64,000 nucleotides of DNA from an uncultured Candidatus Saccharibacteria bacterium (GTDB taxonomy: Bacteria > Patescibacteriota > Minisyncoccia > Minisyncoccales > GWA2-38-27). This document shows positions 7,982 through 42,415 of this stretch, in pieces (position 1 is the stretch's first letter; the number at the start of each line of letters is the position of its first letter). The DNA lies in assembly GCA_964509645.1 (NCBI GenBank), contig CAZDXV010000002.1, forward strand, positions 1,934 to 65,933, written 5' to 3'. Made by a program: the position numbers and the translations under genes. The notes under the pieces are model-generated. The model searched no databases and was not told where the DNA came from. It worked only from the letters and a program-made list of their open reading frames with translations.

Positions 7982-8053
7982 TGGGCGCATCTGGATTCGA
8001 ACCAGAGACCTCTATCGTGTGAAGATAGCGCTCTACCCCTGAGCCATGCGCCC
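7982..8053 (-). tRNA. tRNA-Val (anticodon CAC)
   Basis: Hand-folded cloverleaf: GGGCGCA acceptor, D-loop AGGGGTA, anticodon loop TTCACAC, T-loop TTCGAAT, discriminator A. No encoded CCA. Confidence 0.9.
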
Positions 8054-16286: not shown

Positions 16287-16359
16287 AGCCAAGGACGAGA
16301 TTTGAACTCGTGACCTTCCCCTTACCATGGGGATGCTCTACCGACTGAGCTACCTTGGC
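16287..16359 (-). tRNA. tRNA-Thr (anticodon GGT)
   Basis: Hand fold: GCCAAGG acceptor, D-loop AGTCGGTA, anticodon loop ATGGTAA, T-loop TTCAAAT. Confidence 0.9.
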
Positions 16360-16365
16360 GACTTG

Positions 16366-16449
16366 TGGGCAGGGAGGGATTTGCACCCCCGAAGGTCAGA
16401 GACCGTCGGATTTACAGTCCGATGCCTTTGTCTGCTCAGCCACCTGCCC
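16366..16449 (-). tRNA. tRNA-Tyr (anticodon GTA), class II long variable arm; atypical A18 and G55
   Basis: Hand fold: GGGCAGG acceptor, D-loop AGCAGACAA, anticodon loop CTGTAAA, long variable arm, T-arm GGGGG-TGCAAAT-CCCTC, discriminator A. Confidence 0.85.
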
Positions 16450-42181: not shown

Positions 42182-42252
42182 TGCGGGGTGGAGAAGTAGT
42201 ATCTCGCGAGGCCCATAACCTCGAGACGTCAGTGCAACTCTGGCCCCCGCAA
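42182..42252 (+). tRNA. Initiator-like tRNA-Met (anticodon CAT) with non-canonical C33, A18 and G55
   Basis: Closely parallels E. coli tRNA-fMet in the acceptor (xGCGGGG/CCCCGCA-A) and D-stem, including A11:U24. Anticodon loop CCCATAA, D-loop AGTAGTA, T-loop TGCAACT. Confidence 0.6.
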
Positions 42253-42266
42253 CAAATTAAGCCGTA

Positions 42267-42337
42267 GCCGGGGAGTAGAATGGCATCTAAAGCCGTCTCA
42301 TAAGCGGTTAAAGTGGGTTCGATTCCCGCCCCCGGCA
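42267..42337 (+). tRNA. tRNA with CAT anticodon (elongator Met or Ile2), compact and slightly irregular
   Basis: Acceptor GCCGGGG/CCCCGGC, D-loop ATGGCA, anticodon loop CTCATAA, T-arm GTGGG-TTCGATT-CCCGC. It has A at position 8 and one extra nucleotide at the D/anticodon junction. Confidence 0.65.
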
Positions 42338-42341
42338 CATT

Positions 42342-42415
42342 GCGGGCGTAGCTTAGCGGCTTAAAGCGCCGCCCTGTCACGGCGGAGACCGTGGGTTCAA
42401 ATCCCATCGCCCGCG
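42342..42415 (+). tRNA. tRNA-Asp (anticodon GTC)
   Basis: Canonical hand fold: GCGGGCG acceptor, D-loop AGCGGCTTA, anticodon loop CTGTCAC, T-loop TTCAAAT, discriminator G. Confidence 0.9.

Follow-up and report, generated by a model that had tools for sequence, protein, structure and literature searches.

The G18·Ψ55 contact of the tRNA elbow has very probably been replaced by A18·G55, usually together with A57, in functional tRNAs of Patescibacteria, through recurrent compensatory evolution. The change was seen in two tRNA genes, a tRNA-Tyr and an initiator-type tRNA-CAT, of the window, that is, the whole 64-kb stretch of DNA analysed here (GC content ~36%), which belongs to a Parcubacteria/Nealsonbacteria-like genome of the Patescibacteria (CPR). 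To our knowledge, few RNA modifications are as conserved as Ψ55. In reviews, U55/Ψ55 is described as universally conserved (PMC7912444, PMC4810234), and G18 and Ψ55 are regarded as a mainstay of the L-shaped fold; the only deviants given for an elbow in which G18 and U55/Ψ55 are conserved are tRNA-Pyl, tRNA-Sec and mitochondrial tRNAs (PMC7912444, PMC4810234, PMC7609411). No prior description of an A18/G55 tRNA variant was found in the literature searched as full text, an absence that does not amount to proof of novelty. The variant genes themselves are ordinary members of the tRNA family; the novelty lies in the form of one tertiary contact.

tRNA genes of the window

ARAGORN and the Rfam model RF00005 agree on seven tRNA genes in the window, all of them above the RF00005 gathering score of 29 bits. 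An earlier note on this DNA had counted eight tRNAs, six of them canonical; these numbers come down to seven and five, while the GG and UUC motifs that it reported for tRNA-Val, tRNA-Trp, tRNA-Thr, the second tRNA-CAT and tRNA-Asp stand. The genes, with the elbow residues of the two variant ones, are the following:

7982-8053: tRNA-Val, GG in the D-loop and UUC in the T-loop
15850-15921: tRNA-Trp, GG and UUC
16287-16359, minus strand: tRNA-Thr(GGU), canonical GG/UUC, 6 nt downstream of tRNA-Tyr, an internal control
16366-16449, minus strand: tRNA-Tyr(GUA), A18/G55/A57 elbow, found by ARAGORN and Rfam (53.1 bits)
16433 and 16432, minus strand: A18 and G19 in the tRNA-Tyr D-loop, AGCAGACAA
16379-16385, minus strand: tRNA-Tyr T-loop, UGCAAAU, with G55 at 16384 and A57 at 16382
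42182-42252, plus strand: initiator-type tRNA-CAT, A18/G55/A57 elbow, found by ARAGORN and Rfam (51.6 bits)
42198 and 42199, plus strand: A18 and G19 in the initiator D-loop, AGUAGUA; the Rfam alignment places this A at model position G18
42233-42239, plus strand: initiator T-loop, UGCAACU, with G55 at 42234 and A57 at 42236
42267-42337, plus strand: tRNA-CAT no. 2, GG/UUC, directly downstream of the initiator
42342-42415, plus strand: tRNA-Asp, GG/UUC, after tRNA-CAT no. 2

The Rfam scores of the two variant genes make both of them members of the tRNA family. As judged from the sequence and the ARAGORN structure, the tRNA-Tyr is of bacterial class II, with a GUA anticodon, a long variable arm, G1-C72 and A73. 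Its 5′ part reads GGGCAGG-UG-GCU-GAGCAGACAAA-GGC..., and its T-arm is GGGGG-UGCAAAU-CCCUC, with the loop residues U54, G55, C56, A57, A58, A59 and U60; the T-arm of the initiator-type tRNA is GUCAG-UGCAACU-CUGGC. Both genes carry A18 and G55 in place of the G18 and U55 (Ψ55) of the canonical elbow, which confirms the double change that the earlier note had read in the D- and T-loops of tRNA-Tyr and again in the initiator-like gene. The G19-C56, U54·A58 and G53-C61 pairs of the canonical elbow are present in both, as they are in all 84 A18/G55 tRNAs tabulated in this study. For tRNA-Tyr, an alignment with 63 orthologues of equal D-loop length identifies the first G of the GG pair as the base that was replaced; in column 20 of the alignment, all 38 G55 genes have A and all 25 U55 genes have G.

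Both variant loci are surrounded by housekeeping genes (trmD, rpmG, def, rpsP, rnc, nusB, dnaE, pheST, gatAC and mreB). The gap between tRNA-Tyr and tRNA-Thr spans 6 nt (16360-16365), and rpmG and tRNA-Trp then follow, an arrangement that makes co-transcription of tRNA-Tyr and tRNA-Thr probable. Neither gene encodes CCA, which is encoded in some orthologues (L007, L033, L048 and L065). The second tRNA-CAT (42267-42337) has an A at position 8 and an aberrant D-arm, in which a UAGA/UCUA stem closes a loop of 6 nt, AUGGCA. No other tRNA of the window scores as low with Rfam (40 bits), and ARAGORN folds the gene only with mismatches; its orthologues in relatives L054, L066 and L075 are canonical.

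The tRNA-CAT at 42182-42252 is likely an initiator. It has a CAU anticodon and a GAGA/UCUC D-stem with A11:U24, a hallmark of bacterial initiator tRNA. Bacterial initiators normally carry a C1xA72 mismatch; the window gene has a weak pair, U1-A72 (42182, 42252), at this position, and its relatives have C1xA72 (L066) or A1xA72 (L054, L075). At 29-31:39-41 of the anticodon stem, where three consecutive G:C pairs were looked for, A29-U41, G30-C40 and G31-C39 were found, and since only two of these are G:C, the assignment is likely rather than proven. G55-type initiators are also present in L054, L066 and L075 and on at least 24 metagenome contigs. In the anticodon loop, CCCAUAA (42212-42218), C33 (42213) replaces the near-universal U33. 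The same C33 was seen in the initiators of L054, L066, L075, L117, L135, L153, L178, L198 and L200, and also in some U55 initiators (L136, L140, L149, L174 and L184). It is, therefore, independent of the elbow change.

Coupling of positions 18, 55 and 57 in relatives

Relatives of the window were collected through TrmD, which is encoded immediately upstream of tRNA-Tyr and retrieved 80 loci from species-representative genomes. All 80 belong to Patescibacteria/CPR of the Parcubacteria group (Nealsonbacteria, Gribaldobacteria, Paceibacter and Minisyncoccales), with TrmD identities of 58-85%. ARAGORN predicted 241 tRNAs in the window and these 80 loci. When classified by D-loop positions 18-19 and T-loop positions 54-56, 178 of them were GG/UUC, 58 were AG/UGC and three were GG/UCC, with neither G18/G55 nor A18/U55 occurring in this set (0 each). 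The run and the tabulation of positions 18, 19, 55 and 56 that the earlier note proposed thus disclosed a strict A18-G55 coupling. The note had placed the variant in tRNA-Tyr and the initiator, where it does occur, although it is not confined to them, being found also in tRNA-Thr, tRNA-Trp and an elongator-type tRNA-CAT. By family, AG/UGC accounted for 38 of the 63 canonical-type tRNA-Tyr genes (71 genes called as tRNA-Tyr adjoin trmD), 14 of 71 tRNA-Thr(GGU), two of the 65 tRNA-Trp surveyed and all four initiator-type tRNAs of the trmD-locus set (window, L054, L066 and L075). Positions 18 and 55 of the aligned tRNA-Tyr genes share a mutual information of 0.97 bit, which is as much as the full state entropy, and position 57, with a mutual information of 0.63, is the sole other strongly coupled column.

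The association was replicated in metagenome contigs, which were scanned with the D-arm pattern GCGGGGTGGAGNAGTNGTANCT, leaving position 18 free and the T-arm untouched, and yielded at least 120 loci. Among the matches listed, 110 initiators could be parsed: G18 was accompanied by UUC in 86 of 86, and A18 by UGC in 24 of 24. The other tRNAs on the matched contigs listed comprised 138 GG/UUC and two AG/UGC. The two variants are elongator-type tRNA-CAT, in L088 and L098, and bring the families with the variant to five, along with Tyr, Thr-GGT, Trp and the initiator; this isotype spectrum is shaped by the route through which the loci were retrieved.

Pooling both sets (~490 tRNAs, from the 80 relatives and at least 120 metagenome contigs) gave 402 G18/U55, 84 A18/G55 and no discordant tRNA. 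G18/G55 was not seen among the ~490 tRNAs tabulated, and no credible single-change intermediate was found among the tRNA-Tyr (71), tRNA-Thr(GGT) (71), tRNA-Trp (65) and initiator (110) genes. The only nominal exceptions are aberrant tRNAs of L180, with D-arms that could not be parsed; the single nominal A18/U55 call is an aberrant tRNA of this kind. A57 accompanies G55 in 83 of 84 tRNAs and U55 in 125 of 405 in the pooled set. The association between positions 18 and 55 is, thus, far beyond chance, and the coupling is a three-way one that includes position 57. GC pressure was considered as a cause and rejected: the two changes cancel each other in GC content, and the contigs bearing the variant span 30-62% GC.

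Other unusual tRNAs were encountered in the relatives. Ten of them have a third, very different form of tRNA-Tyr downstream of trmD (L001:4129-4213, L003, L010, L014, L025, L050, L061, L066, L068 and L076, of which L001 is a close relative), with a G-rich D-loop (...UAGGGGG...), the T-loop UUCGACU and different stems; two of these are miscalled by ARAGORN as tRNA-Phe(AAA). Its location at the same syntenic site suggests a gene replacement. A C55 variant of the T-loop, UCC, was found in L022:10888-10960 and L036:11611-11683 (Thr), in L076:15634-15709 (Trp), in L100 and L156 (both Gly-GCC) and in L166 (CAT), with G18G19 kept; it is rarer than G55 and leaves the D-loop unchanged. The tRNA-Asp at L141:507-583 has the D-loop AGUCUGAUUUA, which lacks GG, and the T-loop UUUAAAU, apparently through a Watson-Crick covariation of the second tertiary pair of the elbow, from G19-C56 to A19-U56. 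An odd tRNA between tRNA-Thr and tRNA-Trp in L001 (4687-4761, minus strand), called Ser(UGA) by ARAGORN, has a class I shape, an AG D-loop, a mismatched anticodon stem and an 8-nt T-loop, UGUCAAAU. At L169:821-895, an initiator-like body (GCGGGGUGGAG...) with A18/G55 and an encoded CCA bears the anticodon CGU (Thr), and may have arisen from an initiator by a switch of anticodon.

Function, recurrence and modification of the variant tRNAs

The comparative evidence indicates that the A18/G55 tRNA-Tyr and initiator genes are functional. The 38 G55-type tRNA-Tyr genes fold as class II cloverleafs, in which 17 of the 23 pairs have altered bases on either side and all 23 remain paired, as expected of a working tRNA. 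The variant tRNA-Tyr occupies a conserved site downstream of trmD and the variant initiator a conserved syntenic site, the gene order iMet-CAT-Asp on contigs with a G55 initiator being that of the window; together with the compensatory stem changes, these positions argue against pseudogenes. On the same contigs, the neighbouring tRNAs have a canonical elbow in 16 of 18 cases for CAT and 12 of 13 for Asp, indicating that the variant belongs to individual tRNA genes and not to whole genomes. The opposite view, that the two loci are decaying pseudogenes, or that their cloverleaf is misaligned and a G is kept at position 18 through slippage of the D-loop, could draw on their Rfam scores of 53 and 52 bits, against 58-71 for the canonical neighbours, and on the slippage documented in yeast SUP4oc (PMC4117946). 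It could also draw on the Rfam model itself, which assigns the D-loop G of tRNA-Tyr to position 18 and the next A to position 19. This is the alternative alignment with G18 that the earlier note had raised against its own reading; the placement has a low posterior probability and is overruled by the orthologues, and U55 is absent in any case. Moreover, GG is missing from the D-loop of every G55 tRNA, and the base after AG varies (A, C or U), which rules out its pairing with the invariant C56 in the slipped register, and slippage would leave the change from U55 to G unexplained. Given also the perfect cloverleaf with compensatory evolution and the preserved synteny, decay or misalignment has next to no probability. 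The structural covariation that the earlier note proposed in place of random decay is, thus, strongly supported by the 402/0/0/84 table, the five families, the compensatory stems and the synteny.

How often the switch occurred was estimated by parsimony. A single-gene TrmD tree gave 20 changes for Tyr, compared with 24.7 when states were shuffled, and barely resolved the taxa; because the states are nearly as scattered as shuffled ones, this count is unreliable, and we relied on trees of the tRNAs themselves, in which the elbow columns were masked, and on the closest pairs of opposite state. With the masked trees, the number of switches came to 10 in Tyr (bootstrap minimum 9, against a mean of 19.9 for shuffled states), five in Thr (minimum 2) and six in the initiator (minimum 5). 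These numbers are soft, as the alignments comprise ~70 nt, the TrmD tree resolves poorly and any passing of tRNA alleles from one lineage to another could raise the counts. They suggest roughly nine or more switches in Tyr, two in Thr and five in the initiator. Genes of opposite state may differ at just 3-7 other positions, with three differences outside the elbow for L067/L072 and for L098/L172 and four for L065/L016 and for L085/L181, and the T-stems of L117 and L134 are identical despite their opposite elbow states. All four combinations of Tyr and Thr states were found within genomes. It could be argued that each family holds a single ancient A18/G55 allele, spread by descent or transfer, and that the coupling is mere linkage: allele transfer could explain the near-random scatter on the TrmD tree, and the G55-type tRNA-Thr genes are alike. 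Against this stand the bootstrap minima of 9, 2 and 5 switches and, in Tyr and the initiator, the G55 and U55 forms found on several distinct backbones that they share (3-7 differences). The same double change affects five different tRNA families, which counts out an artefact of single origin, since even one origin per family would leave five independent double changes and no single change. We, therefore, regard shared ancestry as a very improbable source of the coupling.

The substitutions also bear on modification. G cannot be isomerised to pseudouridine, so G55 tRNAs are devoid of Ψ55 and, having no uridine 55 in the T-arm, are not TruB substrates, as the earlier note had anticipated and as the chemistry dictates; likewise, A at position 18 makes Gm18 impossible. 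In tblastn searches with E. coli queries, TruB homologues with the catalytic GHAGTLDP motif were detected only in relative L026 and metagenome contig L091, and no TrmH or TrmA homologue was found in the window, the relatives' loci or the metagenome contigs. The check for truB that the earlier note called for thus found it in relatives, with no TruB homologue, as with TrmH and TrmA, within the 64-kb window. Short TruB homologues, 215-225 aa in length, number thousands, some of the named ones coming from Patescibacteria, and TruB is widespread in the phylum. Eight contigs with CPR TruB homologues have only canonical tRNAs nearby and share no assembly with a known G55 tRNA-Tyr; in assembly CAYMMJ, TruB and a trmD locus are both present, and tRNA-Tyr lies beyond the contig end. 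Among the matches listed (P0001-P0120), patescibacterial TruB proteins are ~210-230 aa long and match TruB_N and TruB_C_2, with no match to the PUA domain. The truB gene often directly adjoins a tRNA gene, either tRNA-Lys (L026, L204 and L205) or the initiator (L091 and L207).

An adaptive reading would have A18/G55 exempt tRNA-Tyr, tRNA-Thr, tRNA-Trp and the initiator from a reader of the elbow, such as TruB, TrmH, TrmA, a nuclease or toxin directed at tRNA, or a factor of host or phage origin, or else tune their handling by the unusual CPR ribosome; the variant would then be more than a near-neutral structural equivalent. The variant is gene-specific within genomes, recurs many times and is present in four of four initiators of the trmD-locus set (window, L054, L066 and L075), all of which would fit such a role, as would the retention of TruB in the phylum, whereby G55 removes a modification that other tRNAs presumably receive. 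However, no partner varying together with the tRNA state came to light, the outer G19-C56 face used by most elbow readers is unchanged, and the states flip among close relatives in all Tyr and Thr combinations, a pattern more like drift between equivalents. We, thus, consider an escape of this kind unlikely. It is similarly doubtful that the A18·G55(A57) elbow is, rather than a neutral equivalent, a selected, tRNA-specific switch that defines a Ψ55-free and Gm18-free class, including the initiator, handled differently by a CPR-specific partner; candidates for that partner would be the reduced CPR ribosome, TruB in a chaperone role, a toxin that targets tRNA or, given the episymbiotic lifestyle, a factor of the host.

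A predicted G-clamp elbow

The favoured reading, a compensatory replacement of G18·Ψ55 by A18·G55, leaves most of the elbow in place. U54, C56, A58, G53-C61 and G19 are retained in every variant, and with them the outer pair, G19-C56, which offers a stacking surface to the ribosome, RNase P and other partners. T-loops are built from a UA_handle and a UNR or GNR turn (Jaeger and co-workers, PMC2615604). According to the same study, a G-clamp or, “more rarely a U-clamp”, mediates the interaction with the intercalating nucleotide, and tRNA-Phe is singled out as the U-clamp case (PMC2615604). Of the two, the G-clamp is the commoner form of the T-loop motif in rRNA, RNase P RNA, riboswitches and the ATP aptamer. 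By analogy, the turn of the variant T-loop would switch from a UNR U-clamp (Ψ55-C56-R57) to a GNR G-clamp (G55-C56-A57), and residue 18, the purine intercalated between residues 57 and 58, would become A instead of G and so be able to bond with the G of the clamp. A18 would take the role of the GNRA-like adenine, in a contact with G55 that is probably of the sheared type, as in GNRA loops and for AMP in the ATP aptamer. Such a conversion would explain both why G18 gave way to A and why A57 is preferred. The G-clamp signature U-G-N-R-A is found as UGCAA in both window genes, and the R position is an A in 83 of 84 variants. From this likeness, we infer the G-clamp fold and the hydrogen-bond geometry of the A18/G55 elbow; the intercalation of A18 and its bond to the clamp G are supported indirectly, by the perfect covariation of positions 18 and 55. 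A GNRA tetraloop formed by G55-A58 and closed by U54-N59 was also considered and was rejected, as position 59 is freely A, G, U or C in G55 tRNAs.

Under the proposed mechanism, single changes would be strongly deleterious and the double change compensatory, which would account for the two substitutions being seen only together. In the yeast SUP4oc tRNA-Tyr suppressor, G18-U55 tolerates no single mutation (PMC4117946). The scan of this tRNA (Guy et al. 2014, PMC4117946) thus shares with our data an essential 18-55 contact, its dead single mutants matching the absent intermediates. It differs in the rescue of G18A, reported for U20G only, which acts by D-loop slippage (G18A + U20G) and not by U55G as in CPR bacteria; if G18A + U55G was scored, the double mutant was inactive in that G57 background (PMC4117946).

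Compared with the canonical tRNA elbow, the variant shares the cloverleaf, the 7-nt T-loop, U54, C56, A58, G53-C61, G19 and, presumably, the outer G19-C56 face, and differs in A18 and G55, in its strong preference for A57 and in that it can bear neither Ψ55 nor Gm18. Eukaryotic and archaeal initiator tRNAs have a T-loop variant of their own, with A54 and A60. This is likewise a lineage- and tRNA-specific deviation of the T-loop in which the L-shape is kept, although it affects positions 54 and 60 instead of 18 and 55, is limited to initiators and involves no coupled change in the D-loop. Like the G-clamp motifs known from rRNA, RNase P RNA, riboswitches and the ATP aptamer (PMC2615604), the variant combines U-G-N-R-A with a distant purine, which is predicted to intercalate and to touch the G of the clamp; those T-loops do not occur in tRNAs, whereas here the predicted geometry is set in an otherwise standard tRNA elbow. 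tRNA-Pyl, tRNA-Sec and mitochondrial tRNAs are also natural, functional tRNAs without G18·Ψ55 (PMC7609411). Their loops, however, are shortened or grossly altered, with loss of G19-C56 or of the whole interaction, while the A18/G55 tRNAs keep their loop sizes and all other conserved residues and have one contact swapped.

On this reading, A18·G55 with A57 would be a second workable elbow design in nature, used repeatedly by a major bacterial radiation in essential tRNAs, including the initiator. It would provide a natural and many-times-replicated case of covariation at a non-Watson-Crick tertiary contact without viable intermediates, and would tie the T-loop of tRNA to its G-clamp counterparts in rRNA and RNase P. 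The tools for finding and scoring tRNAs are concerned as well, as their models penalise real CPR tRNAs. In the bacteria themselves, certain tRNAs are obliged to work without Ψ55, so that the roles of Ψ55 and of TruB as a chaperone become testable on matched natural pairs.
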